In this document: positions 35,003 through 56,662 of the stretch, in pieces
How the letters are laid out: every line of letters starts with the position of its first letter
How positions within the stretch are numbered: the first letter of the stretch is position 1
IMG/VR virus record: IMGVR_UViG_3300031730_000004
Span: 1 to 63,587 of that record
From: a virus
Strand: one strand, 5' to 3'
DNA: 63,587 bases
Notes under the pieces: generated by a model
What the model saw: only the letters and a program-made list of their open reading frames with translations
What the model was told of the DNA's origin: nothing
Database searches by the model: none
Made by a program: the position numbers and the translations under genes

Positions 35003-35028
35003 CCCCAACTACACTACAACGTATCAAC
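35003..35028 (+). promoter_or_regulatory. Copy of the CCCCAAyTrTACTACA..TATCrAC motif
   Basis: ccccaactacactacaacgtatcaac, 14 nt before the ATG of 35042. Confidence 0.4.
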
Positions 35029-35041
35029 AGGAGACCGAGCA

Positions 35042-35287
35042 ATGGCCAACGTCTACGAAGGCACCCCCGACGGCCGTCAGGCCGAGACTGCAATTCCCGT
35101 CTCTCGCTTCCGCCCGCGCTACCGCGCCCTCACCGACGAGGAGAAACTCCTGCACGACGCCCTCAAGGACAAGGCCGCCGAGCTGGAAGTCCTGTTCCAG
35201 AAGGTCAAGCCCGGCAGGTACAACTCCCTCGCCGTCACCTCCCTGGAACAGGCGATCATGTGGATCGTCAAGGAGTTGACGTCGTGA
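35042..35287 (+). CDS. Small helical protein (81 aa) resembling the N4-gp49/Sf6-gp66 (Acb2/Vs.4-like) family
   Basis: YRALTDEEKLLHDALKDKAAELEVLF...RYNSLAVTSLEQAIMWIVKELT matches, from memory, the Y..L..EEK...IK and SLA.TKLEEA.MW..K blocks of that family. Confidence 0.4.
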   Translation: MANVYEGTPDGRQAETAIPVSRFRPRYRALTDEEKLLHDALKDKAAELEVLFQKVKPGRYNSLAVTSLEQAIMWIVKELTS

Positions 35288-38624: not shown

Positions 38625-39069
38625 GGTGAGGGCGGTTGTAAAGGATTTTTGGAAAGCGCCAAATAGACGGTCTGAAGCTGGTGTACAAGCGGGTCGTCTT
38701 TGGCTAGGTCCGCTCGGCGGTTTGACCATTGTTATCGTTCTCCTGTGGATCGGACACGCGTATCCGCGGGATATCGACGGTCGCTATGCGGCCTCGCCGT
38801 TGAAGAAGTGGTTCGACGGGCTCGCGTCCGGCAAGGGACCGTGCTGTTCCGATGCTGACGGCACCGCGCTGTCGGATGTCGACTGGGAAGCGAAGGACGG
38901 GCATTACCACGTGCGCATCGATGGCGCGTGGTGGCTCGTGCCGGACGAGGCCGTGCTCAAGGAACCGAACCTGTCGCAGCGTACCATGGTCTGGCCGATC
39001 TATTACCGATCGGACCTGAGCCCGGTCCGGATCGAAATTCGCTGCTTTATTGTGGGAGCGCAGGGATGA
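38611..39069 (+). CDS. Membrane-anchored protein (152 aa) with a CC-containing periplasmic-type domain
   Basis: TM segment LGGLTIVIVLLWIGHAY, then ...GKGPCCSDADGTALSDVDW... Confidence 0.5.
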   Translation: MTRDEVRAVVKDFWKAPNRRSEAGVQAGRLWLGPLGGLTIVIVLLWIGHAYPRDIDGRYAASPLKKWFDGLASGKGPCCSDADGTALSDVDWEAKDGHYHVRIDGAWWLVPDEAVLKEPNLSQRTMVWPIYYRSDLSPVRIEIRCFIVGAQG

Positions 39070-39560
39070 AGCGCAACGTTATAGCGCTTGTTCGCTTGAA
39101 AGAGGTTTTGCGTTACGATCCGGATACAGGATTGTTTTGGTGGATTATTAAACGCAACGGTACGATTACTGGTAAGCCTGCAGGCGTTCTCGGAAAATAC
39201 GTGCGAATCAAGATTGACGGAAAATCGTATTCGGCGTCGTGCATGGCGTGGTTGTGGATGACGGGTGAATGGCCAACACAAGAAGTCGACCACAAAGATT
39301 TGAACAAGCACAATAACAAATGGGAAAATCTTCGAGCAGCAACTCGTTCGCAAAACACGACGAACATACCGCGAAGGAAAAGTGGGTCGAATAAATACAA
39401 AGGAGTTACTCGGCACAAGCATTCAGGTAAGTGGTCGGTGTGCATCACAATAGATGGAAAGCAGAGAACGCTTGGACGTTTTCACGATCAAGAGAAGGCG
39501 GCGGCCGCTTACGCGGAAGCAGCTAAAAAGCACTATGGCGAATTTGCGAGGCTTAAATGA
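39066..39560 (+). CDS. HNH homing endonuclease with an AP2 DNA-binding domain
   Basis: VDHKDLNKHNNKWENLRAATRSQN (HNH_3-like) and YKGVTRHKHSGKWSVCITIDGKQRTLGRFHDQEKAAAAY (AP2); low-GC patch. Confidence 0.8.
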   Translation: MKRNVIALVRLKEVLRYDPDTGLFWWIIKRNGTITGKPAGVLGKYVRIKIDGKSYSASCMAWLWMTGEWPTQEVDHKDLNKHNNKWENLRAATRSQNTTNIPRRKSGSNKYKGVTRHKHSGKWSVCITIDGKQRTLGRFHDQEKAAAAYAEAAKKHYGEFARLK

Positions 39561-40564
39561 AGATCGGCGTTTGTACCACGACTATAAGGAAACCTGAAGC
39601 GTTGAAAGTACTGCGCAAATTTGCAGGACACAACGTGAAGTTTTTTATCGCGTTGGACACAAATTCGGACTTCAAAGCCATTTCGACGTGGGGAGACCTC
39701 GACGACCAGTTTTGTTGGATGACGCCGGATTGGCAGAAAAAATTCAAGTGCTCCGAAGCGCTCGGATGGCGAACATTGAGCCGCAGGAACACGGCTTTTC
39801 TCGCTGCCCTCGAATGGGGGTGCGATGCAATCTATTCTCACGACGATGACAACCTCGTAACCGAGGTAACTTTTTTCGAGCAGATCGCCATTAACTTCGA
39901 ACCGTTCAACGGCATCAAGGTCACCGGTACCAACGGCTGGTTCGATCCAGGCAGTCTGCTGATCCCGGCCACCCGCCATCGCGGTTTCCCGCACGGCAAG
40001 CCCGTCAGCAAGACCGCTCACCCCGTCACCAACGCCAGGGTAGGTGTCGCCGCTGGCCTCGTCACCGGCGACCCCGACATCGACGCCACGACCCGCATGG
40101 AGCATCGCCCCGACATCGGCAGCGTTCACATCCTGGGCTCGACCGGCGTGGTCGTCGACCCGCACACCTGGACCGTCTTCAACAGCCAGAACACTGCGGT
40201 GATCCGCGAGCTGATGCCGGCGTGGTTCATGATGCCCGGGGTCGGCCGCCACGACGACATATATGCTTCTCTCATTGTTCAGCGCGTCGCCCGCGAGCGG
40301 GATCTCCACGTCCATTTCGGCCCGCCCTTCACCTACCAGCAGCGCAACGCGCATGATCTGGTCAAGGACCTGCGCGCCGAGATCGATGGGATGGAGAACG
40401 TCTGCAAGCTGGCGACCCTGCTCGACCACATCGTTCTGCCGGGCAAGAGCGTGATCGAGGACACCTGCATCATCTACTCGGCGCTTCGCTACTGCGATTT
40501 CCTGCCGATCGAATCGGCGAATGCGGCGCTGCTGTGGATCGAGGATGTGGGGAGTGTGCTTTGA
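39557..40564 (+). CDS. GT75 / reversibly-glycosylated-polypeptide (UDP-arabinopyranose mutase or STELLO)-like enzyme
   Basis: VCTTTIRKPE, SHDDDNL (DxD), RHRGFPHG, GDPDIDATT, FNSQNTAVIREL and GRHDDIYAS align by eye with the RGP-family blocks IPTIR, TIDDDCF, VRGYPFS, IPDYDAPTQ, MNLAFDREL and GRYDDMWAG. Confidence 0.6.
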   Translation: MKIGVCTTTIRKPEALKVLRKFAGHNVKFFIALDTNSDFKAISTWGDLDDQFCWMTPDWQKKFKCSEALGWRTLSRRNTAFLAALEWGCDAIYSHDDDNLVTEVTFFEQIAINFEPFNGIKVTGTNGWFDPGSLLIPATRHRGFPHGKPVSKTAHPVTNARVGVAAGLVTGDPDIDATTRMEHRPDIGSVHILGSTGVVVDPHTWTVFNSQNTAVIRELMPAWFMMPGVGRHDDIYASLIVQRVARERDLHVHFGPPFTYQQRNAHDLVKDLRAEIDGMENVCKLATLLDHIVLPGKSVIEDTCIIYSALRYCDFLPIESANAALLWIEDVGSVL

Positions 40565-40719
40565 TCGTGAAGCTGGTGCTAGGTACGAAATCTGATCCAG
40601 GGCCGAAGGTAATTGTCGAGTCGAACATCAAGTTTACTGAAGTCACGGCGTTTGATAATTGGCTGAAAGTCCAGAAGCTGGCGCGCGACTGGCTCAGGAT
40701 GGAGTTGGACAAGGGATGA
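40561..40719 (+). CDS. Hypothetical small protein (~52 aa, TTG or GTG start)
   Basis: TTGA overlap with the upstream stop; GGGGAG lies 6 nt upstream. Confidence 0.3.
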   Translation: MIVKLVLGTKSDPGPKVIVESNIKFTEVTAFDNWLKVQKLARDWLRMELDKG

Positions 40720-41984
40720 AACTCGCCATCGGCTTCTCAACCAAGGACCAGGTCGGCCTCACCCGGCATACCTTGCTGCGAGTTCTTCGGCACGACGATT
40801 TTGACTTGCTATGGGCCGATGGGTCGCGCACGTCGGAAGGGCAATCCTTTTTTACTCGTAACGCCGTCGGCCGTACGATTGCGTACCCGGAGGTTTACGG
40901 CGGCGCCGACGCGGCGATCGCATTCAAATTGAGCACGGCCTTGGCCTCGTCCGCCAACTACACCCACATCGGCCTGCTCGAGAACGACGTCCTCCTCGAC
41001 GAGGACTGGTACGAGCCGACAATTGAACTGTTCGAGAAGGGGAAGCAAGATGGCCTCGCTGTCGGTGCGGTTAGCGCACGATCTTATGTGGACCGTGTAC
41101 TGGTGCAGCGGGATGGCTATGCCGTTATGCACAATGTGGGCGCCGGCATGGCCATCTTTACGAGGGAGGCCGCCGAGATCGTCCTTCGTTCCTTTCGCAC
41201 GGCATGGTGGCCCGCTAATCGTCTTATTTTTGCTCAGTTATCTGGCATCGATCTAGCCACCTACGCCGCCTTCCGCGGCAACGACCAGTGGGTGACGACC
41301 GACTGGGGCTGGGAAGCCCAACTCGCCAGCCATGGATTGGCCACCCTGGCTCTGACCCCGGCGAAGTGCCAGATGATCGGACAGAACCCGCCTTTGGAGC
41401 AGCAAGGCTTGCATCTCACGGCTCTGAACATTGTTTCGGGGCGTTGGACAGGAGATTCTGGGAAGTGGGATGATCCCGAAGTTGATTTTCAGCGCTATGT
41501 CAACGTCCTCGACGCCCTTCGCTATGACGGTGCCCGAACCGACCTCCCCGGAATCATCCACCGCGACGGCGCCGGCATGCTGTTTTTCCCGCATCAACTC
41601 GGCTATTTCGCAGGGGGTCCCGCATGGCTAGGAACTTTGGAATTGCAATGGAACCAGGGTTTCGGCCCGTTCGCCTACCGCGCTGGTCCGGGCGGCGCTA
41701 TTCTCGCCTTGCACTTGTCTGGTTCCTCCTCGTTCCTCGTCAGTGGCGGTGTTGCCGGCGCCCGCGTCGCGATCAAGGACACCCGCTCTGGATTTAACTT
41801 CGCCCCTATGCTGCCACCCTCTCACGAGCCTGCCTCGCTGAACGTCCCGGGCGGCCCGATCCCGCGCAGAATTGTGCTTGAGATGGATGAGGGCGCGGTG
41901 TTTTATGGCGTCCAGACCGCCGATCCCCAGATGCTGGATGCGACGTTCAGGTTTGACTGGACACAATTACCAAAGGCTGTGTGA
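40716..41984 (+). CDS. GT-A fold (GT2-like) glycosyltransferase (422 aa)
   Basis: MKLAIGFSTKD...LLWADGSRTSEG...GGADAAIAFKL...IGLLENDVLLDEDW resembles a GT2 Rossmann-like core with a DxD-type acidic motif. ATGA overlap. Confidence 0.45.
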   Translation: MKLAIGFSTKDQVGLTRHTLLRVLRHDDFDLLWADGSRTSEGQSFFTRNAVGRTIAYPEVYGGADAAIAFKLSTALASSANYTHIGLLENDVLLDEDWYEPTIELFEKGKQDGLAVGAVSARSYVDRVLVQRDGYAVMHNVGAGMAIFTREAAEIVLRSFRTAWWPANRLIFAQLSGIDLATYAAFRGNDQWVTTDWGWEAQLASHGLATLALTPAKCQMIGQNPPLEQQGLHLTALNIVSGRWTGDSGKWDDPEVDFQRYVNVLDALRYDGARTDLPGIIHRDGAGMLFFPHQLGYFAGGPAWLGTLELQWNQGFGPFAYRAGPGGAILALHLSGSSSFLVSGGVAGARVAIKDTRSGFNFAPMLPPSHEPASLNVPGGPIPRRIVLEMDEGAVFYGVQTADPQMLDATFRFDWTQLPKAV

Positions 41985-42985
41985 TGAAAAAGTGTCTAAT
42001 TCTCGGCGCCGCCGGATTTTTGGCTGGCCACCTCGAACACCGCCTCCGCGCCGAAGGTCACTTCGTCGTCAGCGTCGCCCGCAAACCCCCTCCCTTCCGG
42101 CCGTCGGTGGCCAATGAGTACAATATCCTGGATCTTACGAATACTGCCGATTTCCATCATCATTTTTTCCGTCATCACTTTGATGAATGCTACCAGCTGG
42201 CAGGCGAGGTTGGCGGTCTTGGGTTCATTGGTGATAGGAATCACGATATCGAGATTCTCACCAATTCCTTGAAAATAAACCTCCACACCCTCGAAGCGAT
42301 CCACAAGACAGGTGCATGCAACCGCATCTTCTTCGCCTCTTCCCAGTGCGTCTATCCCGACAACCGCTTCGAGATCGACCCCTTTGCCGCCGAGCGCATC
42401 GCCCCGCCGCCCAAGCCCTGGGCCGAGACCGACGCCCAGTTCGAGAACAACTTCGCGTTTGCCAAGGAGAAACTGTATGCCGAGTCTCTGTACCTCGCCT
42501 TTTCCCGAAATCACGGAATTGACGTTCGGATCGGACGGCTCGGTAACACTTACGGTCCGTATTGCACATGGGACAGTGCGCGGGCTAAAGCTCCAGCCGC
42601 AATCTGCCGCCGAGTTGCGCAGTCACCTTATGCCGGCGTGGTTGAGCTTTGGGGAGACGGGAAGGCCAGCCGCTCCTTCACCTACGTCGATGACGCCGTC
42701 GAAGGCATGATCCGGCTGATGGCTTCGCCCCACCAGATGCCGGTCAACATCGCTCATTGCGAGACGACGACGATCGCCGAGTTGTTCGAGACCGTATGCC
42801 AGGTCGCCGGCAAGGTGCTGGCGTGGAAGCCGTCGGTCGGCCCCGAGGGCGTCCGCCACCGTGGCTCCGACAATACCCGGATCAAGCAGCTTCTGAACTG
42901 GGAGCCTTCGATTTCGCTGGAAGAAGGATTGCGCCAGACGTATCCCTGGATTAGGGATCAAGCCTTGACAAAGGCCGATACATAG
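41981..42985 (+). CDS. NAD-dependent extended SDR, GDP-mannose 3,5-epimerase-like
   Basis: ILGAAGFLAGHL (GxxGxxG), FFASSQCVYPD, RIGRLGNTYGPYCTWDSARAKAPAAICRR, ELWGDGKASRSFTYVDD and VGPEGVRHRGSDN match GME hallmark blocks recalled from plant GME. Confidence 0.8.
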   Translation: MMKKCLILGAAGFLAGHLEHRLRAEGHFVVSVARKPPPFRPSVANEYNILDLTNTADFHHHFFRHHFDECYQLAGEVGGLGFIGDRNHDIEILTNSLKINLHTLEAIHKTGACNRIFFASSQCVYPDNRFEIDPFAAERIAPPPKPWAETDAQFENNFAFAKEKLYAESLYLAFSRNHGIDVRIGRLGNTYGPYCTWDSARAKAPAAICRRVAQSPYAGVVELWGDGKASRSFTYVDDAVEGMIRLMASPHQMPVNIAHCETTTIAELFETVCQVAGKVLAWKPSVGPEGVRHRGSDNTRIKQLLNWEPSISLEEGLRQTYPWIRDQALTKADT

Positions 42986-42989
42986 CATA

Positions 42990-43005
42990 CCCCAATTGTA
43001 CTACA
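42990..43005 (+). promoter_or_regulatory. Copy of the CCCCAATTGTACTACA motif directly before the recombinase RBS
   Basis: ccccaattgtactaca followed by aaaggagaggacgtcATG. Confidence 0.4.
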
Positions 43006-43020
43006 AAAGGAGAGGACGTC

Positions 43021-43716
43021 ATGATTCTCGGATACATCAGGTGCTCGACGGCAGACCAGGCCAAGGACGATCGCTCGTCCCTGCAGGTTCAGACTGACAT
43101 CATCGAGGGCTACGCCCGCACCCGCGGCGCCGACCGGTTCGGCGTCCAGATTTTCACCGATGCCGGTGTATCCGGCGCGGTCAAGCTTGCCGCGCGCCCC
43201 GCAGGCAGCGATCTCCTTGCCGCCTTAGCCCCGGGCGACACGGTGATTGCGAGCAAGCTTGACCGCATGTTTCGCTCCGCCTCCGATGCCCTCAACATGC
43301 TGGAGCTGTTCAAGGCGAAGGGCGTCCACCTCGTCCTGTTCGACATGGGCGTCGATCCGGTCACCGGCGATGGCACCGCCCGCCTTTTGTTCATCATCCT
43401 GGCCGCAGTCGCTGACATGGAGCGCGTCCGGATCAAGGAGCGCACCGCCGAGGGCAGGAAGGCGAAGAAGGCGAGGGGCGGGGTGATCGGCAAGGTCCCG
43501 TTCGGTTACCGGAAGGTCGGCGAGGGGCGGGCGGCGGTGTTGGAGAGGGATGAACGAGAGATAGCTGCTGCCGCGAGAATGCGGCGTCTGTATCAGGATC
43601 GCTACGCGCTTCCGCAGATTGCCGAGTTGCTGTCGAACGATGGATACGTGTCTCGCACCGGTAAGCCCTACACGCCGATGGCGATCCGGCGGGTGGTGAC
43701 GGAGGCGAGACAATGA
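43021..43716 (+). CDS. Serine recombinase (231 aa): resolvase catalytic domain plus a short recombinase-type C-terminal domain
   Basis: MILGYIRCSTADQ (Ser nucleophile), SKLDRMFRS, ERVRIKERTAEG, then GKVPFGYRK...IAELLSNDGYVSRTGKPYTPMAIRRVV. Confidence 0.85.
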   Translation: MILGYIRCSTADQAKDDRSSLQVQTDIIEGYARTRGADRFGVQIFTDAGVSGAVKLAARPAGSDLLAALAPGDTVIASKLDRMFRSASDALNMLELFKAKGVHLVLFDMGVDPVTGDGTARLLFIILAAVADMERVRIKERTAEGRKAKKARGGVIGKVPFGYRKVGEGRAAVLERDEREIAAAARMRRLYQDRYALPQIAELLSNDGYVSRTGKPYTPMAIRRVVTEARQ

Positions 43717-43982
43717 CCGACGGCCCCTTCACCGACGACATGGCGCGCAAGTTTCTGCAGACCGCCAGGATGCAGCGGGAGATCATTCCCCACATGGAGG
43801 AGATGGCCCAGAAGCTGGCGGCGGCCGGGGTTGCTTCGGAGATGGTGAAGGGCGACTCGGCTGAGTATTCCATATATCGCTGGTGCGAAGTGATTCGCGA
43901 TCGTGCCATGGTGTTGCTGCGCGAGAAGCGTGATGAAGCGAAGCGAGTGCTCGAGACCAAACAGATCGAGAAAAAGAAATGA
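43713..43982 (+). CDS. Hypothetical protein (89 aa)
   Basis: ATGA overlap. Confidence 0.45.
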   Translation: MTDGPFTDDMARKFLQTARMQREIIPHMEEMAQKLAAAGVASEMVKGDSAEYSIYRWCEVIRDRAMVLLREKRDEAKRVLETKQIEKKK

Positions 43983-44143
43983 CCTCCGAACTCGAAGAAC
44001 TGATTCGGCGCGCAAGGGCACACGTGGATGCGATGACGCCCGAAGAAAAGGAAGCGATGCTCCGTAGGCAGGCCGAAGGTTGGGCGCGATCGGAAGCACA
44101 ATGGGCCGAGGACTTCCGGGAAGGGAAGTGCGAACGTGATTGA
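43979..44143 (+). CDS. Hypothetical protein (54 aa)
   Basis: Own translation: MTSELEELIRRARAHVDAMTPEEKEAMLRRQAEGWARSEAQWAEDFREGKCERD. ATGA overlap. Confidence 0.35.
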   Translation: MTSELEELIRRARAHVDAMTPEEKEAMLRRQAEGWARSEAQWAEDFREGKCERD

Positions 44144-44342
44144 TCCAGCCGAGTTCGAAGCCAAGTGCAAGGAGCTGTGCCCGCACTGCGCGGCCGGCGA
44201 AGCTGTGCGGGTGCGCACTGACACCGGCGAGATCGTCCACGACTTCTCGTTCGGTTCGGTAGATCCGCTTCTCGGCCGCCCCCGCGGCATGGGCCATTCG
44301 ATCTGTCAGGCACATGAGTTCAGGAAAGCGAACGGACAATAA
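44136..44342 (+). CDS. Hypothetical Cys/His protein (68 aa, GTG start)
   Basis: CPHC...HSICQAH. Confidence 0.4.
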   Translation: MIDPAEFEAKCKELCPHCAAGEAVRVRTDTGEIVHDFSFGSVDPLLGRPRGMGHSICQAHEFRKANGQ

Positions 44343-44842
44343 TGCCGACTGGGCACGGTAAAGGCAGCATCGCAACCCAGTTCAAACCGGGGCAGCGTTT
44401 GACGTTTGAAGAACGATACGAACGTCTTGCTTTTCCGGAACCTAATTCTGGATGTTTCATTTGGATGGGAGCGCTAAACTGGAACGGTTACGGCAAGATG
44501 GGCATCGGCCTTGTGTCAGAGGGCACTCATCGGATGCAGTATGCGCACATTGTTGCTTACGAGCATTTTGTTGGACGGGTTCCAGAAGGAAAGGTGCTTG
44601 ATCACAAATGCCGAATGCGATGCTGTGTGAACCCGGATCATCTTGAACCAGTGACGCAAATAGAAAATATCAGACGCGGCACGGCCAGTGAAGTTACTCG
44701 CGCTAGAATGGCAGCAATAACGCATTGCAAGCGCGGTCATCCGCTGAGCGGACCTAATTTAAATTTATACCGTGGCGTGAGGCTGTGTCGCGCTTGCCGC
44801 GCAATGTATTCTAAAAAACAGGAAGCGAAACGCCGTGGGTAA
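44342..44842 (+). CDS. HNH homing endonuclease
   Basis: NGYGKMGIG...VLDHKCRMRCCVNPDHLEPVTQIEN, plus THCKRGHPL...CRACR; low-GC patch. Confidence 0.8.
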   Translation: MPTGHGKGSIATQFKPGQRLTFEERYERLAFPEPNSGCFIWMGALNWNGYGKMGIGLVSEGTHRMQYAHIVAYEHFVGRVPEGKVLDHKCRMRCCVNPDHLEPVTQIENIRRGTASEVTRARMAAITHCKRGHPLSGPNLNLYRGVRLCRACRAMYSKKQEAKRRG

Positions 44843-46232
44843 TCGCGAACAAGCACAAAATCTTTTGCTTAAGGGAGAGCAGGCTGCGCAAGATAAGTCG
44901 GCGCCTACAAATATGGACCATGCCTACCAGCTGACTTCCAGTGCTTGCTACGCCGATCCATCTTACGGTCACGCTTTTTATGCGAATGGTTGTGCCGCTT
45001 CCGACTTGGTTCGTCCTCATGCGGCGGTGGCTCTTTTTCGTCGTGCGATTGAAAACGACTTGGATGCTGACGAGCGTCCGAAAGCATTGATTAATCTTGC
45101 ATGGGAATTAATGAAAATTGGCGGGCATCAGGAAGCTGTTACGCACTTGTACGAGGCCCTTCGGCTGAATCCAAAACTCGCACTGGGATATATGCACCTT
45201 TCTATGTGCGAGCAGACCTTCGGCAATACGGCCGAGGCGGTCGGCTACGCCCTGAAGTGCTTCGAGCTTGCCGACCCCAACGACGGCCAGGGATACCCGA
45301 TCGCTGAGTTCCAGTTGGCGTTCGCGTTGTTGTTCGACGGGCAGTACGCCGCCGGCTTGAAGCATTTCGAGTCCCGGTTTGCCGCGCGGCTGCCGAATTT
45401 CCTGCTGTATCCGTACCCGAAGTGGCGAGGCGAGAATGGCAAGACGTTATTTCTGGTTGCCGATCAGGGTCTTGGTGACACGCTCTCTTACGCCAGATTC
45501 GTTGAGGCCGCAGCTTCCCGCTGCCGCTATATTCACATGTGCGTTCAGAGTGAGTTACGGCGCGTCTTCGAGCATGCTTTTCGGCATCTACGAAATCTCA
45601 ATTTCCTTCCATCGCCGTCCAATTTCCCTGGCGACGCCGACGCCTGGTCCACGTTCGTAAGCCTACCGTTCGCACTCGGTCTTACGGACGATGAAATAAA
45701 ATCGGCCCCCAATATCGACATGCCCCGGCCTCCCATGAGCAACCAATGGAAGGTCACGGACCGCAAGTTCCACATCGGAATAGCGTGGGCCGGCAGCCCG
45801 ATGAACGACATCGACAAGCACCGGAACATCCCGATCCACCACTTTGTGGAGCTTTACAAGGTCCCCGGGATACAGCTTTACTCGTTGCAAGTCGACGCCA
45901 AGAAGACCGACCTGAACCTGTGGGGCTTTGCCCCGCTCATTCGTGACCTGTCAGGATACATTCGCGATGTCGCAGACACGGTTTCCATCCTCCAGGAGCT
46001 CGATCTCGTCGTTACGGTTGAATCGGCTCTTGGCCACATATGCTCAATGTCTGGAAGGGACTGCTGGGTGCCCTACAGTCACCTCGGCAGAGATTATCGC
46101 ATCGGTGTATCGGAAGCATCGACGCGCCTTTGGACCCCCAAGCACCGCATCTTCCAGCAATCCGAAGACATGCGATGGGAGCCCGTGTTCGAGCGGATCG
46201 TCGAAGCTTTGAGGGAGAAGGTGTCCTTTTAA
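44835..46232 (+). CDS. TPR-repeat protein fused to a GT-B (GT9/heptosyltransferase-like) glycosyltransferase domain
   Basis: N-terminal TPR-like helices (AFYANGCAASDLVRPHAAVALFRRAIE..., EAVTHLYEALRLNPK). C-terminal LFLVADQGLGDTLSYARFV and GIAWAGSPMNDIDKHRNIP, typical of GT9-like domains. Confidence 0.55.
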   Translation: MGNREQAQNLLLKGEQAAQDKSAPTNMDHAYQLTSSACYADPSYGHAFYANGCAASDLVRPHAAVALFRRAIENDLDADERPKALINLAWELMKIGGHQEAVTHLYEALRLNPKLALGYMHLSMCEQTFGNTAEAVGYALKCFELADPNDGQGYPIAEFQLAFALLFDGQYAAGLKHFESRFAARLPNFLLYPYPKWRGENGKTLFLVADQGLGDTLSYARFVEAAASRCRYIHMCVQSELRRVFEHAFRHLRNLNFLPSPSNFPGDADAWSTFVSLPFALGLTDDEIKSAPNIDMPRPPMSNQWKVTDRKFHIGIAWAGSPMNDIDKHRNIPIHHFVELYKVPGIQLYSLQVDAKKTDLNLWGFAPLIRDLSGYIRDVADTVSILQELDLVVTVESALGHICSMSGRDCWVPYSHLGRDYRIGVSEASTRLWTPKHRIFQQSEDMRWEPVFERIVEALREKVSF

Positions 46233-46254
46233 ACACCACTTAAGGAAAACAAAC

Positions 46255-46890
46255 ATGAGAACCAAGCCAATTCTTTGCGTCGATTTCGATGGCGTCATTC
46301 ACAGTTATACGAGCGGCTGGAAGGGCGCGACCGTCATCCCTGATCCGCCGACCCAAGGTGCGTTGCGCTGGCTATGGAAGGCGACCGAATGGTTCAACGT
46401 CCAGATCTATTCGTCGCGGTCGAAAGATCCAGAAGCACGGCTTGCGATGGGTCGATGGATGATTGAACATTCCAAGATCGAGTTCGGCGCAGACCATCCG
46501 ATGGCGATGTCAGATGATGACGGCGACGCTGGTCCAGTTTATCCAATCGGAATCGCCTATGAGAAGCCCGCTGCGTTCCTGACGATCGATGACCGCGCGA
46601 TATGCTTCGAAGGTGATTGGAGCGAGATCGAGCCGGCTGACCTGCTCAACTTCAAACCGTGGAATAAGCGAGACCTCGGTGCAACCGGAACCTTCCCGCA
46701 GGGCGTTCTCAATGACGACGATCAGGGCGCGCTCAAGATCGGCATCGCCTATAACAAACGCGACGGCCTCGTGCACCTGAATTTCGGCAAGCCGATTGCA
46801 TGGACCGCATTCGCGCCGGAGATGGCCGTCAATCTTGCGCGCATGCTGTTGAAGCATGCTGGCGCGAAGAAGGTCGAGATCGAGATTTAG
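46255..46890 (+). CDS. HAD-superfamily phosphatase-like protein
   Basis: ILCVDFDGVIH (DxDG motif I), IYSSRS (motif II), EKPAAFLTIDDR (motifs III/IV). Confidence 0.6.
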   Translation: MRTKPILCVDFDGVIHSYTSGWKGATVIPDPPTQGALRWLWKATEWFNVQIYSSRSKDPEARLAMGRWMIEHSKIEFGADHPMAMSDDDGDAGPVYPIGIAYEKPAAFLTIDDRAICFEGDWSEIEPADLLNFKPWNKRDLGATGTFPQGVLNDDDQGALKIGIAYNKRDGLVHLNFGKPIAWTAFAPEMAVNLARMLLKHAGAKKVEIEI

Positions 46891-47278: not shown

Positions 47279-47497
47279 ATGCCCTGGTCCAAACCAGTTT
47301 TCTCCTCGATGGTTTCCGAAGTTGGCTGGGACGAGTCGACCGAGGAACTCCTCGTAACCTTCGCCAAGAACGGCAAGACGGCGGCCTACAAGGGGTTTGA
47401 CGAGGGCAAGGCCGAGCAACTGTCGCGTGTGCCGTCGGTTGGCGGCATGTTCCTCGACGAGATCAAGCCGTTTGCGAGCGGGTGGCGATATGTCTGA
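47279..47497 (+). CDS. KTSC-domain protein (72 aa)
   Basis: SSMVSEVGWDESTEELLVTFAKNGKTAAYKGFDEGKAEQLSRVPSVGGMF fits the KTSC pattern. Confidence 0.6.
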   Translation: MPWSKPVFSSMVSEVGWDESTEELLVTFAKNGKTAAYKGFDEGKAEQLSRVPSVGGMFLDEIKPFASGWRYV

Positions 47498-47747
47498 CGA
47501 ACAACCCGACGAGTCCGAAGCCCGCGCCGTTTTGTTCGACCAGATGGCGGCCCAGATCCGTCTGAACAAGGATGCGATCTTCGGCGGCGCCTTCCTGATG
47601 GTGCCCCCCGCCGGCGATCCGTTTTCATCGCTGATGCTCAATCAGGACGAGGCGTCGATCTTCTGGGCCGCGGTGCAGACGCTGGCAAACATGGCCCTGG
47701 AATCCCTCCAGCAGGCCAGCCGGCAGCAGGGGTTTCAGAGGCGATGA
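47490..47747 (+). CDS. Hypothetical protein (85 aa); the small-terminase role is unassigned
   Basis: The ATG overlaps the upstream 3' end. Confidence 0.4.
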   Translation: MSDEQPDESEARAVLFDQMAAQIRLNKDAIFGGAFLMVPPAGDPFSSLMLNQDEASIFWAAVQTLANMALESLQQASRQQGFQRR

Positions 47748-48244
47748 CTGCTCGTCGTACCATAGCCGCCAGCGATAATCTCGCCGTTTTGAACGGCGCG
47801 AAGTCGAAGAACAACGGCCGGTATAACGGCAACGGGCGCCATTGGGCCACGCCGCCAGAGGTGTTTGCCCCGCTGCACGCAGAGTTCGATTTCACGCTAG
47901 ATCCATGTTGCTCGATCGAGACGGCAAAATGTCCGCAATTCTTCACCGAGCGCGAGAATGGTCTTATCCAAAGCTGGGTTGGCCACCGGGTATTCATGAA
48001 CCCGCCCTACGGCCGCGAGGTCTATGCTTGGACACGGAAGGCGCGTCTCGAGCAATCAGCCGGCGCTTTCGTGGTCGGCCTTTTGCCTGCGTCGACTGAC
48101 CTCGCATGGTGGCATGACGACGTGGTCGGGCATGCTGAGGTGCGGTATCTACGTGGCCGCGTCAGATTTATGACGGGCGGCCCATACCGAGCTTCTGGAT
48201 TTTTCGCCAGCGTCGTCGTGATTTGGCGTCCCAAGTTTCGTTGA
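47744..48244 (+). CDS. Phage Dam-type DNA N6-adenine methyltransferase (orphan)
   Basis: WATPPEVFAPLHAEFDFTLDPC...VFMNPPYGREV (NPPY catalytic motif). No cognate nuclease nearby. Confidence 0.8.
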   Translation: MTARRTIAASDNLAVLNGAKSKNNGRYNGNGRHWATPPEVFAPLHAEFDFTLDPCCSIETAKCPQFFTERENGLIQSWVGHRVFMNPPYGREVYAWTRKARLEQSAGAFVVGLLPASTDLAWWHDDVVGHAEVRYLRGRVRFMTGGPYRASGFFASVVVIWRPKFR

Positions 48245-48276: not shown

Positions 48277-50196
48277 ATGGCTGGCTGGTCTCGAGAGAAG
48301 CGCCTGGCGTTTGAGGCGGCGTTTTACGCCTTCCTGAGCCAATGCCGGATCAATTCGAAGGAAGGCGGGTTCATCTCGCTCGGCGACAACATCTATTACG
48401 GCCAGCGGCTGTTCATCACGGCCATTCTTGACGGGCTTGAACAGGACATCCACGACTTCTACTGCCTGAAATCCCGCCAGCTCGGCATCACCACGATCTG
48501 CCGGGCGCTTTCTGCCTTCTATCTTGGTGTGCACCGCGGACTTTCCGGCGCCTTGGTGTTCGATTCCAACCAAAATATGAACCTGGCGCGGGCTGAACTC
48601 ACAACGATGATCACGGATCTTCCGGAGCGACTTAAATTCCCCGAAATCAAGAAGAAGGGCGGTGACAATCGCGACGGTCTGACCTTGATCAACAACTCCA
48701 AGATATTGTTCAAGTCGGCCGGCATCAAGAAGACCAAAACGTCCGGCACGCTCGGCCGATCGGCCGGCTTGTCGATGGCGCACATGTCTGAACTCTGTTC
48801 CTACGACAACAAGGAAGGCCTGGTTTCCTTCCGCCGCTCGCTGTCTCAGTTTAATCCTGACCGCCTTTATATCTACGAGTCGACCGCTCGCGGCCCGAAC
48901 CAGTGGAAGGACATGTGGGATATCGCGCGCGAGGATACCGACCACTGCATCTGTGTTTTCATCGGCTGGTGGGCGCATGATTTGCAGCGCATTGACCGTT
49001 CGGATGCAAGGGATTGGCCGTTGTACGGTGTCCAGCCGCCGACGCAGTCGGAGCAGAGCAAGATCGATGCCGTTAAGGAAATGTACGGCTACGAGATTTC
49101 CCAAGAGCAGTTGGCATGGTACCGTAAGCTGGTTGATCCTGCCGCGCGCGTCGAGGGCGATGTCGATGCCGGCTTCGAGGGCGACTCGTTGCAGAAGCAG
49201 GAAGATCCGTGGACCGAGGACGAGGCATTCCAGCAGACCGGCAGCACCTTTTTTGCCGGTGAATCGCTAAAGGATCAGTCCGACAAGTACGTCCAACGCA
49301 AGTCCATGCCTTACATGTTTCTCGGAGGGTCTGAATTTTCGGATATGAAGGTCTATAAGGCCGAGACCACTCGCAACATCGAGTTGAAGGTGTGGGAGCC
49401 GCCGTCGCCCAGTGCAGTCTACGTTATCAGCATCGATCCCGCGTTCGGCGAGAACGAGAACAACGACCGTTCCGCGATCCAGGTTTTGCGTTGTTACGCC
49501 GACGGATGCGATCAGGTTGCCGAGTACGCCTACACCATGATTTCCACGAAACACTTGGCACATGTCGCGGCTGGTATCATGGCATGGTACGGCAACGAGC
49601 CGCTCAGCGAGGTTTATTACATCCTGGAAATCAACGGTCCCGGCGGCGCGGTGCTTCAGGAACTGAAGTCTTTGAAGTTCCAGATCGAAAACGGCTACGC
49701 GCCGATGGAGGAGCAGGGACTTAAGAACATCTTCCGTAACGTCAAGCAATTCATGTACGCCCGTCCGGACTCGCTGTCGGGTGGAGCTTCGGCATGGCAC
49801 TGGAAGACGTCGCCCAGCAACAAAGAGGCGATCATGGAGGAGCTTCGAGGCTTCGTTTCCAATGGGCAGCTTCGTATCCGATCGCACGATCTCGTTGAGG
49901 AGATGAAGAACGTGACTCGGGACGGCGCATCGATCGCTGCGGAGGGCGATTTGAAGGATGATCGGGTCGTGGCAGCCGCTATGGGCACGCACTACTGGGA
50001 TTCCAAGATCCGGCGCAACCTGATCGTTCAAAAGCGGACCCGATCGGCGGAAGCCGCCAAGCGGCAGGCCAGCATTATTGACACCACGTCGCTGTTCAAC
50101 CAGAACATGATGGCGTCGTTCATGAACCAGAAGGCGCAGACCCGGGTACAGGCGCAGCGACTGGCGATGAAGAACGCATGGAGGTACGGACGGTGA
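48277..50196 (+). CDS. terL: Terminase large subunit
   Basis: LKSRQLGITT (Walker-A-like), YIYESTARGPNQW, and a nuclease-domain pattern VYVISIDPAFGENENNDRSAIQVL. Followed by the portal gene. Confidence 0.8.
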   Translation: MAGWSREKRLAFEAAFYAFLSQCRINSKEGGFISLGDNIYYGQRLFITAILDGLEQDIHDFYCLKSRQLGITTICRALSAFYLGVHRGLSGALVFDSNQNMNLARAELTTMITDLPERLKFPEIKKKGGDNRDGLTLINNSKILFKSAGIKKTKTSGTLGRSAGLSMAHMSELCSYDNKEGLVSFRRSLSQFNPDRLYIYESTARGPNQWKDMWDIAREDTDHCICVFIGWWAHDLQRIDRSDARDWPLYGVQPPTQSEQSKIDAVKEMYGYEISQEQLAWYRKLVDPAARVEGDVDAGFEGDSLQKQEDPWTEDEAFQQTGSTFFAGESLKDQSDKYVQRKSMPYMFLGGSEFSDMKVYKAETTRNIELKVWEPPSPSAVYVISIDPAFGENENNDRSAIQVLRCYADGCDQVAEYAYTMISTKHLAHVAAGIMAWYGNEPLSEVYYILEINGPGGAVLQELKSLKFQIENGYAPMEEQGLKNIFRNVKQFMYARPDSLSGGASAWHWKTSPSNKEAIMEELRGFVSNGQLRIRSHDLVEEMKNVTRDGASIAAEGDLKDDRVVAAAMGTHYWDSKIRRNLIVQKRTRSAEAAKRQASIIDTTSLFNQNMMASFMNQKAQTRVQAQRLAMKNAWRYGR

Positions 50197-50288
50197 TTCA
50201 ATACGTTTTCGTAGCGTTGGGCGCGCTCACAGCTATTGCCGCTGTTGGATCGCTGCTCGTCTTGACCGCAAAAGCATGGGATCGCTGA
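50193..50288 (+). CDS. Single-TM miniprotein (31 aa)
   Basis: Own translation: VIQYVFVALGALTAIAAVGSLLVLTAKAWDR. GTGA overlap with the terL stop and TGATG overlap with the next start. Confidence 0.35.
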   Translation: MIQYVFVALGALTAIAAVGSLLVLTAKAWDR

Positions 50289-50833
50289 TGGCCGTCATCC
50301 TCAAATGCCCCGCCTGCCGGGAAAAGTTCAAGTACGACGTCAGTCAGGGCTGGCCCGACGAGTGCCCGATCTGCAAGACCGACATCAACAACCGGCGCGC
50401 CGACGACGATGTGGTGATGCCGAATATCCTGTCGTTCAAGACCAAGAACAACGACAAGGTCGCTCGCGACATCATGGACGGCTCGGTGCAGCGTGCTGAG
50501 ATGGCTGCTGTCATGGCCGGCACCAGCGTCGAGGACATGGCGGGTCTTAAGATCACTAACCTCAACGATCGCAACGACACCCAGTTTGCAACCAAGGATG
50601 AGGTCAACGATGTAACCCGGCACATGGATGTGATGAAGGCGCAGGGCATGCCGGTTGGATTCGGTGCCGGCTCGGCTCAAGCCATGGGGCAGGCCGCTCA
50701 AGCGCACGTCGGTGACAGCCCTTACGCTGGTCTGCGTGAGCGTAACCGGTTACAGAAATTCTTGCCTCCTATCGGACAGGCCCCGCTGCCTCGCCAGATC
50801 ACTGATAATCCGAATTACCGGTCGCCGGTATGA
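50288..50833 (+). CDS. Zinc-ribbon protein (181 aa)
   Basis: MAVILKCPACREKF...CPICK. An alternative ATG lies at 50276. Confidence 0.45.
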   Translation: MAVILKCPACREKFKYDVSQGWPDECPICKTDINNRRADDDVVMPNILSFKTKNNDKVARDIMDGSVQRAEMAAVMAGTSVEDMAGLKITNLNDRNDTQFATKDEVNDVTRHMDVMKAQGMPVGFGAGSAQAMGQAAQAHVGDSPYAGLRERNRLQKFLPPIGQAPLPRQITDNPNYRSPV

Positions 50834-52557
50834 TTCGCGACATCCCGACAGACACGAAGCTGCTTGTTCCGTTCGCGAACGAGTTGATCGAGACCTGTCG
50901 GGTCAGTCAGGCCAATCGCGCCGCTTATTATCGCTTGCTCAACATGATCGCCGAGACCGGCCGCGCGGACGGCGGCAAGGCGCTCATCAACACGATGAAC
51001 TATCACCTCGAGCGGACGCAGTCGCATCTGTTCTCGCCGATCGAACTGAAGTTCGCCTGTGACTTCGACAACGACTACAAGCCTAACGACATCAAGCGCG
51101 GGCAGGTCGTCGCCAAGCACCTGACGCGGCACTGGGAGCGGTCGGGGTCCGGCACTTTGTTTGGTCAGGGCGTCAAGGAATCGTTGAAGTACGGCGCTTC
51201 GATTTTCAAGCAGTGGCCGAAGTCGGAAGGCTCGGCCGGCAAGGAGCGCATTTCTTACGAGAAGCAGCTGGTGATGCCGTGGAATTTCGGCGTCTACAAA
51301 GAGAGCGAAGCCGACATCGATAACCAGGAAGCGCTGTGCGAGACGTCGTACCTGACCGGCCCCGAGGTGTGGCAGCGGATTTATCGGCTGCCGAAGGCCG
51401 AGGAGATGTTCAAGAACATCATGGTGCACGCCCACATGGGGCAGAGCACCGGCAGTGGTCCGGACAGCTTTTTTCATCAGGTGCTGTCGACCTCGGTGCT
51501 CAACACCGGAGTGCAGCAGTCGACACGGCCACTGCCTGGCGGCATCGTACAGCTCGGCAATGACCCGAACTATCCGACCATCAGCCCGATCGACGGGGCG
51601 CCGACCGTCAAGTTTCACGAGTTGTGGGTCAAGGACGAGGACGACTACGTCACGATCCAGATTGTCGAGCCCGACATCCTCGTGACGCGGTTCAAGCTGT
51701 CGAATTTGATCGGCATTCCGCTCACCCAGCCGTACCGGCTGATTCAGCCGAACCCGTTGCCCGGTTGGTTCTGGGGGCGCAGCGAGCTGATCGATTTGAT
51801 TGAACCGCAGGCGTTCCTGGCGCAATTGTGCGATGACCTGAAGCGGCTGATCGGTCTTCAGATCGACAAGATCCTGTCATTCAGCGGTGAGAACACGATC
51901 ACGGATGAGTCCTACGCGCAATTTCGTCTGTTGGGCTATATGAATCTCGGACAAGGCGGCAAGGCCGAGGATCTGACCCCGAAATTCCCGTCTGAACTGC
52001 TGCCTATCATCAAGTACGTGCAGGAACAGATCAACACGCTCGGGTCATTCCCCGAAATCATGCAGGGCAAGGGTGAGGCGGGCGTGCGTGCCGGTGCTCA
52101 TGCCGAGACGCTGATGAAAACGGCCTCGCCGACCTTGCGCGATCGCGCGCTGCTGACCGAACAGCAACTGGCGTCATGCGCCGACCTCACAATGACGATG
52201 ATGGAGGCGAAAGAGGACCGGAAGTACTGGACCAATCCGGAGGACATGGAGGGGACCGGCTTCATGATCACCGATATCCCTGAGGACTGGCGCATCACCG
52301 TCGACAGTCACTCGTCGAGCCCGATATTCGCTGACGAATCGACGCAATTGCTGTTTGCCTTGCGCAAGGCGGGCGATGTCGACGGTGAGTTCATCATCGA
52401 TCACACCGCGGTGCCCGACAAGGAAAGTGCGAAGGCGTCGCTCAAGCAGCGCAAGCTGGCGGGCGAGCAGATGCAGGAGAAACTGCTCGGTCAGTTGTCA
52501 CCCGAGGGCAAGGACAAGGCGATCGAGGGCATGCTCAAGGGGCATGGAAGGCATTGA
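50830..52557 (+). CDS. Portal protein (575 aa)
   Basis: Size and position downstream of terL and upstream of the scaffold and capsid genes. No motif verified. Confidence 0.6.
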   Translation: MIRDIPTDTKLLVPFANELIETCRVSQANRAAYYRLLNMIAETGRADGGKALINTMNYHLERTQSHLFSPIELKFACDFDNDYKPNDIKRGQVVAKHLTRHWERSGSGTLFGQGVKESLKYGASIFKQWPKSEGSAGKERISYEKQLVMPWNFGVYKESEADIDNQEALCETSYLTGPEVWQRIYRLPKAEEMFKNIMVHAHMGQSTGSGPDSFFHQVLSTSVLNTGVQQSTRPLPGGIVQLGNDPNYPTISPIDGAPTVKFHELWVKDEDDYVTIQIVEPDILVTRFKLSNLIGIPLTQPYRLIQPNPLPGWFWGRSELIDLIEPQAFLAQLCDDLKRLIGLQIDKILSFSGENTITDESYAQFRLLGYMNLGQGGKAEDLTPKFPSELLPIIKYVQEQINTLGSFPEIMQGKGEAGVRAGAHAETLMKTASPTLRDRALLTEQQLASCADLTMTMMEAKEDRKYWTNPEDMEGTGFMITDIPEDWRITVDSHSSSPIFADESTQLLFALRKAGDVDGEFIIDHTAVPDKESAKASLKQRKLAGEQMQEKLLGQLSPEGKDKAIEGMLKGHGRH

Positions 52558-52559
52558 AC

Positions 52560-52597
52560 GACTCCGGAACGTCTTTCAGGGCATTCGTTCCGGAGTC
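52560..52597. terminator. 12-bp perfect hairpin between the convergent portal gene and the antisense cassette
   Basis: GACTCCGGAACG (52560-52571) pairs with CGTTCCGGAGTC (52586-52597) around a 14-nt loop. No clear U-run. Confidence 0.45.
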
Positions 52598-52642
52598 TAT
52601 CAGCCTTCTTCACCAAGAATGCCACTGGCAGGCTGAATAGCG

Positions 52643-53014
52643 TTAGCCTCTGAACCCGCCGCCCATCGGCGTCAGCACGCCCGGCACTTGCCCGCGCGAT
52701 GCCGGACCGATCAACGGATCGCTTTTCGCCGCAGCGACGAACTTGATCTTGACCCGCTCCTCGGCCAGCGAGCGCTGGATGCGCGCGGCTTCGATGAGGT
52801 CGAGGTCTTCGAGCATCACGCCGTGGATCTGCGAGACAGGAATGGCGTAGGTTTGCCCGAAATCATCGGAGCCGATCAACACGTTAAGTTCGGTGCCGCC
52901 ACTCATGATGTTGCCGACGTAAGCATTGTAGGCTTCACCGGCTTTTTCTTCGGTCTTGAAGAGAAGCGCCCACGCCGAGCCGCTTGGTCCGAAGTTGATC
53001 GTCAGGCTGTACAT
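52643..53014 (-). CDS. Hypothetical protein (123 aa); second gene of the antisense cassette
   Basis: AAGGA lies 8 nt before ATG 53014 (MYSLTINFGPSG...). Confidence 0.45.
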   Translation of the reverse strand: MYSLTINFGPSGSAWALLFKTEEKAGEAYNAYVGNIMSGGTELNVLIGSDDFGQTYAIPVSQIHGVMLEDLDLIEAARIQRSLAEERVKIKFVAAAKSDPLIGPASRGQVPGVLTPMGGGFRG

Positions 53015-53018
53015 CAGG

Positions 53019-53240: not shown

Positions 53241-53375
53241 CTGAAAAAGCTTTTAGCAATCCTAAAATCGTTGGAATTGCATGCCCTTGCGGTATGGCCT
53301 TCCTCTGGGAACCAAACGAGGTTGTCCCGGCACGAAGAAGTGCGTCCCGTTCACACCACTCCAAGGAGTCGAGCC

Positions 53376-53979: not shown

Positions 53980-53989
53980 GGAGCGATCC

Positions 53990-54178: not shown

Positions 54179-54181
54179 GTC

Positions 54182-56650: not shown

Positions 56651-56662
56651 GGAGAGCTTCAC

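Follow-up and report, generated by a model that had tools for sequence, protein, structure and literature searches.

The window analysed here, the 63,587 nucleotides of IMG/VR virus record IMGVR_UViG_3300031730_000004, is essentially the complete genome (~64 kb) of an uncultured tailed phage. Just upstream of its gene for the large terminase subunit (TerL), it carries a syntenic module that comprises the genes for four sugar enzymes and a small serine recombinase along with two further small genes. The enzymes are a glycosyltransferase family 75 (GT75) protein resembling the mutase MtdL, a GT-A glycosyltransferase with a beta-sandwich domain, an extended short-chain dehydrogenase/reductase (SDR) related to GDP-mannose 3,5-epimerase (GME), and a GT-B glycosyltransferase fused to tetratricopeptide repeats (TPR-GT). 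That the module remodels a GDP-sugar and transfers the sugar is well supported. The more specific proposal that a GDP-L-hexose or GDP-furanose is made and then used for cytoplasmic protein O-glycosylation, with a virion protein as the likely acceptor, has about even chances of being correct. Residues deemed essential in GT75 and GME enzymes are replaced in the phage proteins, yet these are under strong purifying selection.

A syntenic module upstream of terL

The constituents of the module and its conserved downstream neighbour are as follows.

39557-40564, + strand: GT75-family, MtdL-like protein, putative GDP-L-hexose pyranose-furanose mutase (PDB and profile matches to MtdL)
40716-41984, + strand: GT-A glycosyltransferase with beta-sandwich (AlphaFold model, Foldseek)
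41984-42985, + strand: GME-like extended SDR (likely ATG start at 41984; a GTG at 41981 is also open)
43021-43716, + strand: small serine recombinase of the resolvase/invertase type, 231 amino acids (Pfam Resolvase, 1e-32; PHROG integrase and DNA invertase families)
44136-44342, + strand: Cys/His-rich small protein, 68 amino acids (conserved by tblastn, no family match)
44835-46232, + strand: TPR and GT-B glycosyltransferase, 465 amino acids (model, Foldseek)
47279-47497, + strand: KTSC-domain protein (Pfam KTSC, 5.4e-10)

Conservation was surveyed in the genomic contexts of six proteins and in 37 IMG/VR loci found through TerL by tblastn. In each of the 16 loci whose sequence extended far enough upstream of terL, the genes for GT75, GT-A, SDR, recombinase, 68-residue protein, TPR-GT, KTSC protein, and TerL were present in this order, and shorter loci agreed with it as far as their sequence reached. 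The same order was found in genomes whose proteins are only ~40-50% identical (L007 and L009-L012). A distant phage (L050; TerL 35% identical) had none of the module genes within 10 kb upstream of terL. Such recurrence of one gene order, without exception among related contigs long enough to show it, means that the genes have not come together by chance, and the presence of the cluster in 16 of 16 loci marks it as a core function of a divergent, uncultured clade of ~62-65 kb phages rather than a sporadic moron. Many homologues of the GT75, GT-A, and TPR-GT proteins lie on 61-65 kb contigs, where they are without annotation or labelled only "TPR repeat protein".

The smaller members of the module are similarly constant. 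The serine recombinase lies between the SDR and TPR-GT genes in every clade member examined, and may be the phage integrase, an invertase, or an enzyme functionally tied to the module. The 68-residue protein, recovered by tblastn in 21 loci at 36-75% identity, is encoded directly upstream of the TPR-GT in most relatives; its motif CxxxCPHC ... HSICQAH suggests that it is possibly zinc-binding, and it might serve as a partner or specificity factor of the TPR-GT. The KTSC gene is the conserved downstream neighbour, present in 31 related loci including all those with full upstream coverage.

An earlier, sequence-only reading of the window had proposed a multi-enzyme glycosylation island at this site, a view now borne out by family matches, predicted folds, and recurring gene order; the clade-wide conservation goes beyond that account. 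All five of the open reading frames (ORFs) that it named as sugar-related enzymes were found on the + strand at the coordinates it gave. Four were verified as such, whereas the fifth is plausible as a HAD-like protein from its motifs. It was also correct that the sugar genes are interrupted: a serine recombinase gene, an HNH gene, and small ORFs lie among them. That reading also held the first three enzyme genes to be translationally coupled, which is approximately right for the array as a whole: start and stop codons overlap at the junctions HNH/GT75 (ATGA), GT-A/SDR, recombinase/s1, s1/s2, s2/s3, s3/HNH2, and HNH2/TPR-GT (where s1 to s3 are small ORFs and HNH2 is the second HNH gene). The sole sizeable gap, however, falls between GT75 and GT-A; its 152 nt are filled exactly by a possible ORF of 50 amino acids.

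Enzyme families and predicted folds

In phmmer searches of PDB sequences, the GT75 protein matched MtdL (7XPR/7YUA) across residues 61-292 with E=2.6e-28, and a family profile of 38 sequences lowered the value to 3.6e-38, so that similarity to a characterised GT75 member covers the full domain. Four of the matched entries were deposited as "Transglycosylse" (7XPR, 7XPU, 8HL8 and relatives); 7XPR, 7XPU, and 8HL8 represent MtdL, the GT75 GDP-L-galactopyranose/L-fucopyranose mutase of the A201A pathway (PMC9937993). Pfam matches remained below the gathering cutoffs, both for STELLO (2.1e-5, 23.9 bits versus 27.8) and for RGP (2.8e-4, 20.6 versus 23.8). Searches returned 977 homologues, the closest on 61-65 kb contigs, and an identical protein is also present on a 63,601-bp public contig.

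Conserved residues of the family are R77, D96-D97-D98-N99, R142, D174, S210-Q211, R231, D234, R263, and H266. Among them, D96-D98, R142, D174, D234, Q211, and R231 correspond to D109-D111, Arg159, Asp195, Asp260, Gln229, and Arg257 of MtdL, in which Arg159 is the nucleophile and autoglycosylated Arg, an Asp serves as general base, and Gln and Arg residues bind the substrate (residue roles from PMC9937993). The equivalents of Ser228, Arg289, and His292 of MtdL are kept as well. These positions are invariant in the 38 aligned members and in distant relatives, including members only 40% identical and gp110 of the cyanophage S-T4. With respect to the nucleotide, Thr73 occupies the position of MtdL Ser86, a site at which the plant Asp abolishes GDP binding and so excludes guanine (PMC9937993). 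Motif inspection further equates T8-x-I10 and D34, in a region outside the HMMER alignment, with T13, I15, and D40 of MtdL. Because of these correspondences, the sequence favours a GDP-sugar rather than a UDP-sugar as substrate, and the protein is a putative pyranose-furanose mutase acting on a GDP-L-hexose. The previous assignment to GT75 thus stands, but not the comparison with plant arabinose mutases: the closest characterised relative is MtdL, and "arabinose-type" chemistry is not supported, given the MtdL match, set against a sub-threshold plant RGP/UAM score, and Thr in place of the plant Asp.

The SDR belongs to the extended SDRs (Pfam Epimerase, 5.9e-36), with GME as its closest characterised family. 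Among PDB sequences it matched Arabidopsis GME over its full length (E=4.7e-61), followed by GDP-fucose synthase as the next family (6.5e-24). The earlier call of L-sugar chemistry was therefore right at the family level. Using the GME fingerprint residues given in PMC8787198, we found equivalents of Ser143, Cys145, Lys178, Asn203, Lys217, Arg243, and Arg306. The Cys/Lys/Arg combination is specific to GME, GDP-fucose synthase (GMER) having Cys/His/Lys instead (PMC8787198). Its three members, C123, K203, and R294 (GME Cys145, Lys217, and Arg306), are invariant in the four phage-module sequences aligned; in a broader set, one short representative with Phe at the catalytic Tyr position (P0373) differs at two of them.

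For the GT-A protein, neither Pfam, PHROGs, NCBIfam, nor PDB sequences gave a match, and none of its 643 homologues carries a Pfam domain. An AlphaFold model built from a 40-sequence alignment (pLDDT 86.8) nevertheless predicts a GT-A fold at residues ~1-230. Foldseek related this region to GnT-I, GnT-II, the LH3 glycosyltransferase domain, SpsA, WrtF (a GDP-fucose enzyme), and TarP at E values of 3e-7 to 1e-4, with a probability of 1.00 for GnT-I, GnT-II, SpsA, WrtF, and TarP. An E89-x-D91 motif, invariant in the family alignment, replaces DXD at the expected metal-motif position, so that the model combines a Rossmann-like fold with an acidic, putatively metal-binding motif. A beta-sandwich at residues ~300-422 resembles CBM6 and the DipZ C-terminal domain. 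The predicted fold agrees with the earlier description of this ORF as a GT-A transferase.

The TPR-GT is the best-conserved protein of the module (~70-86% identity among close relatives and 45-60% among more distant ones), with 1113 homologues up to 86% identical. Sequence searches detect only its TPR repeats: no solved glycosyltransferase was matched, and the catalytic domain lacks a sequence match to GT41 in Pfam or the PDB. The structural model (pLDDT 93.6) shows a TPR superhelix (~1-190) followed by a compact GT-B unit of two Rossmann domains (~200-465), an arrangement that, as predicted, is that of OGT and SPINDLY. Indeed, SPINDLY, XcOGT, and human OGT were the top Foldseek matches in the PDB (E 1.8e-10 and weaker). 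In BFVD, full-length matches were to phage "TPR proteins" (TM 0.67-0.71), and the C-terminal half alone matched proteins annotated as GT9, RfaF, and Aah/TibC; Pfam Glyco_transf_9 gave a weak match in 3 of 12 family members (best E 4e-4). Model and Foldseek search together bear out the TPR-fused GT-B transferase recognised in the sequence-only reading.

Proposed pathway and alternatives

In the pathway that we favour, the GME-derived SDR would turn a host GDP-hexose (GDP-mannose or a derivative) into an L-configured GDP-hexose, whose ring the MtdL-like GT75 enzyme would contract to give a GDP-hexofuranose. Two soluble cytoplasmic glycosyltransferases would then draw on these donors. The TPR-GT may select a protein acceptor through its TPR arm, as do OGT, SPINDLY, and FlmG, and attach the first sugar, after which the GT-A/beta-sandwich enzyme may add to or extend the glycan. 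Among possible acceptors, a virion protein ranks first and a host protein second, because the module is universal and syntenic, lies immediately upstream of terL on the late-gene strand, next to the packaging and structural genes, and contains no membrane component.

Several observations weigh against this pathway. In the GT75 protein, the Mn ligand His287 of MtdL is replaced by Gln261, a Gln being found in all five relatives compared and near-invariantly in the 38-member alignment, and Asp87 is replaced by Leu74 (Ile, Met, or Thr in relatives). The D87N and D87S mutants of MtdL are without mutase activity, although plant mutases are active with Ser at this position, and the residues missing from the inactive plant paralogue AtRGP5 are His287 and Arg257 (PMC9937993); the phage enzyme retains the equivalent of Arg257 but not that of His287. 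The Gln261 and Leu74 replacements thus set the phage enzymes apart as a GT75 subfamily of their own, in which the pocket for metal and sugar is altered.

The SDR departs further from its relatives. Ser121 and Lys164 of the catalytic triad are kept, but the catalytic Tyr (GME Tyr174) has become Phe160, as in every phage-module copy examined, and GME Glu216 has become Ala. Consistent with Phe160, the structure of the Y174F mutant of GME (2C5A) was the top match, ranking above the wild type. Direct inspection of positions 33-34 revealed a second change, in the cofactor pocket: the Asp that contacts the NAD ribose at the end of beta-2 is replaced by Ala33-Arg34, and phage-module copies have Ala, Gly, or Ser followed by Arg, a classical NADP-type signature. 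When the query was aligned with the 150 nearest representatives of clusters formed at 50% identity, the catalytic position was Tyr in 133 of the 151 sequences and Phe in 10, and 111 of 120 Tyr-type relatives had the beta-2 Asp. All four Phe-type representatives whose contexts were fetched lie inside the same phage module. Phe together with Ala/Gly/Ser-Arg occurred only in phage-module copies among the 150 representatives; in one further Phe-type representative (P0485) the Asp is still in place. The Tyr-less SDRs share no clade-wide Tyr or His that could compensate for the loss. Because canonical GME chemistry needs transient C4 oxidation, it is doubtful for an enzyme with these two replacements. 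Judged by its residues, the phage SDR is a derived, strongly conserved GME variant that probably cannot perform this oxidation; its substrate for epimerisation might be a sugar already in the 4-keto form, such as host GDP-4-keto-6-deoxy-mannose, or it might use another mechanism. The GME-like family assignment of the earlier reading is thus upheld, but production of GDP-L-galactose or GDP-L-gulose cannot be assumed for a protein that has lost the catalytic Tyr and the NAD Asp.

Further objections concern donor and acceptor. No further sugar genes were detected with Pfam among the 78 other ORFs of the genome, and because genes for GDP-mannose synthesis are absent, the host would have to supply the donor. 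The TM-scores of the TPR-GT to OGT and SPINDLY are low (0.3-0.4), and the match may come partly from the TPR region; TPR domains bind many kinds of partner, and a protein acceptor for this enzyme is a candidate only. In its fullest form, in which the whole clade makes its own L-hexofuranose (or a rare GDP-L-sugar) through a deviant GME and a Gln-type GT75 and an OGT-like TPR-GT O-glycosylates virion proteins, the proposal is one that we consider unlikely to hold.

The sequence-only reading had listed virion proteins, the host surface, and an undescribed DNA or protein modification as targets, and all are retained here. Alteration of the host surface from the cytoplasm, through O-antigen, capsule, or exopolysaccharide (EPS) precursors or through a surface protein such as flagellin or pilin, would lead to superinfection exclusion, receptor masking, or lysogenic conversion. 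A glycan acceptor could be held by the CBM6-like beta-sandwich of the GT-A enzyme, lipopolysaccharide cores are the classical substrates of GT9-type domains, and FlmG-type TPR-glycosyltransferases modify flagellins; the serine recombinase inside the module and the bacterial-looking flanks of one relative (L005) hint at temperate relatives. However, conversion genes are usually variable morons, whereas this module is present in one fixed order throughout a clade whose members differ down to ~40% identity, and its genes form part of a long + strand array running into terL rather than a separately oriented cassette. There is also no membrane protein, flippase, bactoprenol-linked enzyme, or Gtr-type partner (GtrA/GtrB/GtrC), and no transmembrane helix is predicted in the island proteins (highest 19-residue Kyte-Doolittle mean, 1.42). 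Taken together, we regard a surface-directed role as unlikely.

The active-site replacements invite a second alternative, in which the GT75 protein is an Arg (auto)glycosyltransferase or glycan primer and the Tyr-less SDR a non-redox binding or epimerising partner, the product being a pyranose glycan on protein Arg. GT75 enzymes have both mutase and Arg (auto)glycosylation activities (PMC9937993). In the phage protein the nucleophile Arg and the base Asp are invariant while the mutase-linked His and Asp87 are replaced, and the SDR is without redox residues. However, the equivalents of R257 and D260, for which a part in ring contraction has been proposed, are equally invariant, plant mutases work with Ser in place of Asp87, and no separate acceptor protein is evident. 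On this balance Arg glycosylation appears quite improbable.

Glycosylation of phage DNA, as a new base-sugar modification against restriction, would fit a core, clade-wide function; a Dam-type methyltransferase and HNH endonucleases adjoin the module, and phage DNA glycosyltransferases of both GT-A and GT-B fold exist. Yet a Pfam scan of the 78 other ORFs in the 63.6-kb genome detected no thymidylate synthase or hydroxymethylase, nucleotide kinase, deaminase, queuosine/DpdA-type, or other nucleotide-metabolism gene. The previous conclusion that classical glucosylation of hydroxymethylcytosine is not obviously supported is borne out by the lack of a hydroxymethylase and kinase for a glucosyl-hmC/hmU route; the accompanying statement that there is no base-modifying gene is not strictly true, as a Dam-family methyltransferase gene (47744-48244) lies right behind the island. 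The TPR arm and OGT/SPINDLY-like architecture point instead to protein acceptors, and no known DNA glycosyltransferase was among the structural matches, which leaves DNA as a highly improbable target. Decoration of an antibiotic-like or signalling small molecule, as by MtdL and Hyg20 in actinomycetes, we consider very remote: the only characterised bacterial GT75 enzymes do work in natural-product pathways, but Pfam revealed no scaffold-forming biosynthetic genes in the window, the architecture of the TPR-GT gives no hint of a small-molecule acceptor, and the module is conserved as a core phage feature.

Genomic setting and comparison with known systems

Additional genes in and around the island are listed below.

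39069-39560, + strand: HNH-AP2 homing-endonuclease-like protein (Pfam HNH_3 and AP2; phrog_99, 1e-61)
40567-40719, + strand: possible 50-residue ORF, an uncertain gene read from the sequence, whose stop overlaps the GT-A start (ATGA)
44342-44842, + strand: HNH endonuclease (Pfam HNH_3, 4.9e-14)
46255-46890, + strand: HAD-like protein (PHROG matches, motifs by eye)
47744-48244, between the island and terL: Dam-family orphan N6-adenine methyltransferase

The first HNH ORF is listed from 38928, with 39069 as a putative start according to our own reading of the sequence. Both HNH genes are sporadic in the clade, the first occurring in few loci and the second in some loci only, where its position is not always the one seen here, and both have overlapping stop and start codons. 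Their sporadic spread suggests homing-endonuclease insertions, and the second, which here splits the 68-residue protein/TPR-GT pair, is probably a mobile insertion outside the sugar system, to which the first does not belong either. In the slot of the possible 50-residue ORF, a relative (L003) has a 63-residue ORF without detectable similarity to it. The Dam methyltransferase gene is found in some relatives only, and in L003 on the opposite strand. With PADLOC, no defence-system family other than this methyltransferase was recovered, and no island protein matched defence models.

The HAD-like protein shows the motifs DFDGV (near the N-terminus) and IDDR by eye in its translation, the HAD-like part being the N-terminal ~140 residues, and matches phrog_23773 (9e-20) and phrog_1238 (1.6e-9). 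Searches of Pfam, NCBIfam, and the PDB gave nothing even at E<=5. Its N-terminal 140 residues share 54% identity with a hypothetical protein that Bradyrhizobium phage ppBjS10J-1 encodes outside a sugar context, and the nearest relatives in GenBank, from Bradyrhizobium, Microcystis, and Leptospira phages, are likewise encoded by stand-alone genes. In related genomes the gene is absent or elsewhere; it is a movable accessory outside the core module. For the HAD phosphatase of the sequence-only reading, motifs can thus be seen in the translation, the only family matches are to PHROGs, and the gene lies outside the conserved module. One of the PHROGs is labelled "phosphoheptose isomerase", and this label, with the GT9-like domain of the TPR-GT, raised a link to the heptose pathway; the link was rejected, as there was no real similarity to S-T4 gp109 and there were no heptose-pathway genes.

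The genome as a whole encodes a family-A DNA polymerase, an SNF2 helicase, a PrimPol/VapE primase, TerL, and a major head protein. Megablast of the island against GenBank phages gave no match, and because TerL identity to deposited phages peaks at 37% (tblastn), the phage has no cultured relative. Two ORFs of the structural region (1-14,000 or 50,000-63,587) matched the SU10 adaptor protein family (best E 9.4e-12), the sole Pfam match there; kinship with SU10-type podoviruses is only a hint from these sequences. A scan for tRNAs found none, and a promoter/terminator scan gave site counts not above chance expectation.

As to the host, a GT75 profile scan of a genome collection for prophages or a host gave no match. 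The corresponding TPR-GT scan returned only three contigs of metagenome-assembled genomes (MAGs), binned as Solirubrobacteraceae, Verrucomicrobia, and Rhodospirillaceae, and these bin labels cannot be trusted to name a host. GcrA-family genes in two relatives (L002 and L005) and the likeness of the HAD protein to that of a Bradyrhizobium phage hint weakly at an alphaproteobacterial host, with which the MAG bins disagree. The neighbourhood of one distant cellular TPR-GT homologue (L008) held housekeeping genes only and was uninformative.

In L005, a 155-kb ENA contig, phage homology begins at the position of the window's divergent intergenic region, just before 35042 (~35,010-35,040), and is preceded by ~5 kb (1-5200) of bacterial-type genes for a GMC oxidoreductase, an NMT1-like protein, and a globin. 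The junction is either a prophage end, with attP at this site and a temperate clade, or an assembly chimera. The 81-residue ORF at 35042-35287, with homologues in L002, L005, L009, and L012, probably encodes an Acb2/Tad1 hairpin-domain protein of the anti-CBASS/Thoeris sponge family; the Pfam match (2.3e-14) comes from a pooled scan and was placed on this ORF by its correspondence with the Acb2-type gene that starts the + strand early block of L005.

Among known systems, the GT75 protein is closest to MtdL and Hyg20 of the A201A and hygromycin A pathways (PDB 7XPR, 7YUA, 7XPU, 8HL8), with which it shares the DDD, Arg, Asp, and Gln set, with Thr at the Ser86 position. It differs in having Gln for His287 and Leu, Ile, Met, or Thr for Asp87 (S-T4 gp110 included), and in being ~40 residues shorter. 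MtdL is encoded in an antibiotic cluster, the phage GT75 in a core phage operon. The phage copy sits beside a GME-type SDR, a member of the family that supplies the substrate of MtdL, GDP-L-Gal; according to reviews, a GME is also the epimerase of the A201A pathway. MtdL itself converts GDP-L-Galp, the GME product, to GDP-L-Galf for A201A (PMC9937993, PMC8787198). The furanose pathway of Campylobacter was rejected as a model, its mutase being FAD-dependent and unrelated to GT75.

Similarly, the phage SDR resembles Arabidopsis GME (PDB 2C59/2C5A) and Methylacidiphilum GM35E along its full length and shares their Cys/Lys/Arg fingerprint, and is set apart from GME by the replacements at Tyr174, the NAD Asp, and Glu216 described above. 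With SPINDLY, OGT, XcOGT, and FlmG, the TPR-GT shares a TPR superhelix joined to GT-B in a soluble, cytoplasmic enzyme. SPINDLY, a GDP-fucose-dependent protein O-fucosyltransferase, uses a GDP-L-sugar donor, and FlmG provides a bacterial precedent for cytoplasmic O-glycosylation of a protein by a TPR-glycosyltransferase (PMC7591256). Compared with GT41 enzymes, the phage protein is much smaller (465 residues), with a compact GT-B unit and a GT9-like sequence signal.

A viral parallel is Synechococcus phage S-T4 (NC_048049), a T4-like myovirus unrelated to this clade. Within gp104-gp119 it encodes a GT75 homologue (gp110, 32% identical) and a GME-like protein (gp119, 38%) ~6 kb apart, together with glycosyltransferases. 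In contrast to the SDR of the module, which has Phe, gp119 keeps the catalytic Tyr, and the S-T4 island adds heptose-pathway and cytidylyltransferase genes and does not have the TPR-GT/recombinase/KTSC arrangement. In S-T4, gp110 (L001, 5860-6768) is annotated as hypothetical or a "putative membrane protein", yet by sequence it is homologous to GT75 and carries the Gln and hydrophobic replacements seen in the module protein, and gp119 (L051, 325-1425) is a canonical GME-like epimerase; the annotation thus misses a probable furanose pathway in a cultured cyanophage. Virion glycosylation in mycobacteriophages (mentioned in PMC11256854) provides a precedent, by analogy, for the favoured target: for cytoplasmic glycosyltransferases encoded by phages of cluster F and others, decoration of capsid and tail proteins has been proposed or shown. 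Those systems use GT2/GT4-type enzymes and host donors; they are not known to include a mutase/epimerase pair or a TPR-GT, or to be clade-universal.

The earlier claim that pairing an RGP-type enzyme with a GME-type epimerase is undescribed was overstated, as the A201A logic is known and S-T4 carries both gene types. Of the papers matched by a full-text literature search on GT75 and bacteriophages, none carries either term in its title or abstract, and in the two soil-virus studies that were matched GT75 comes up just once or twice. What appears to be new is the fixed module of four enzymes and a recombinase that marks the clade, a GME variant of NADP type without the catalytic Tyr, a GT75 subfamily with Gln at the metal site, and the coupling of both deviant enzymes to an OGT-like TPR-glycosyltransferase. 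Phage glycosylation has so far been met in scattered cases, such as DNA glucosylation, O-antigen conversion, and mycobacteriophage virion glycans; a full donor-remodelling and transfer module as a core trait of a large, environmentally widespread uncultured clade implies that the glycan is essential to the life cycle. The module also yields natural variants of two families that are of interest to biotechnology, the furanose-forming GT75 mutases and GME, a rare route to L-sugars, and could expose new sugar-nucleotide chemistry as well as a new phage surface or host modification relevant to phage-host recognition. If the proposed pathway is correct in its fullest form, it would be the first viral furanosylating protein-glycosylation system and would add a new reaction mode to the GME scaffold.

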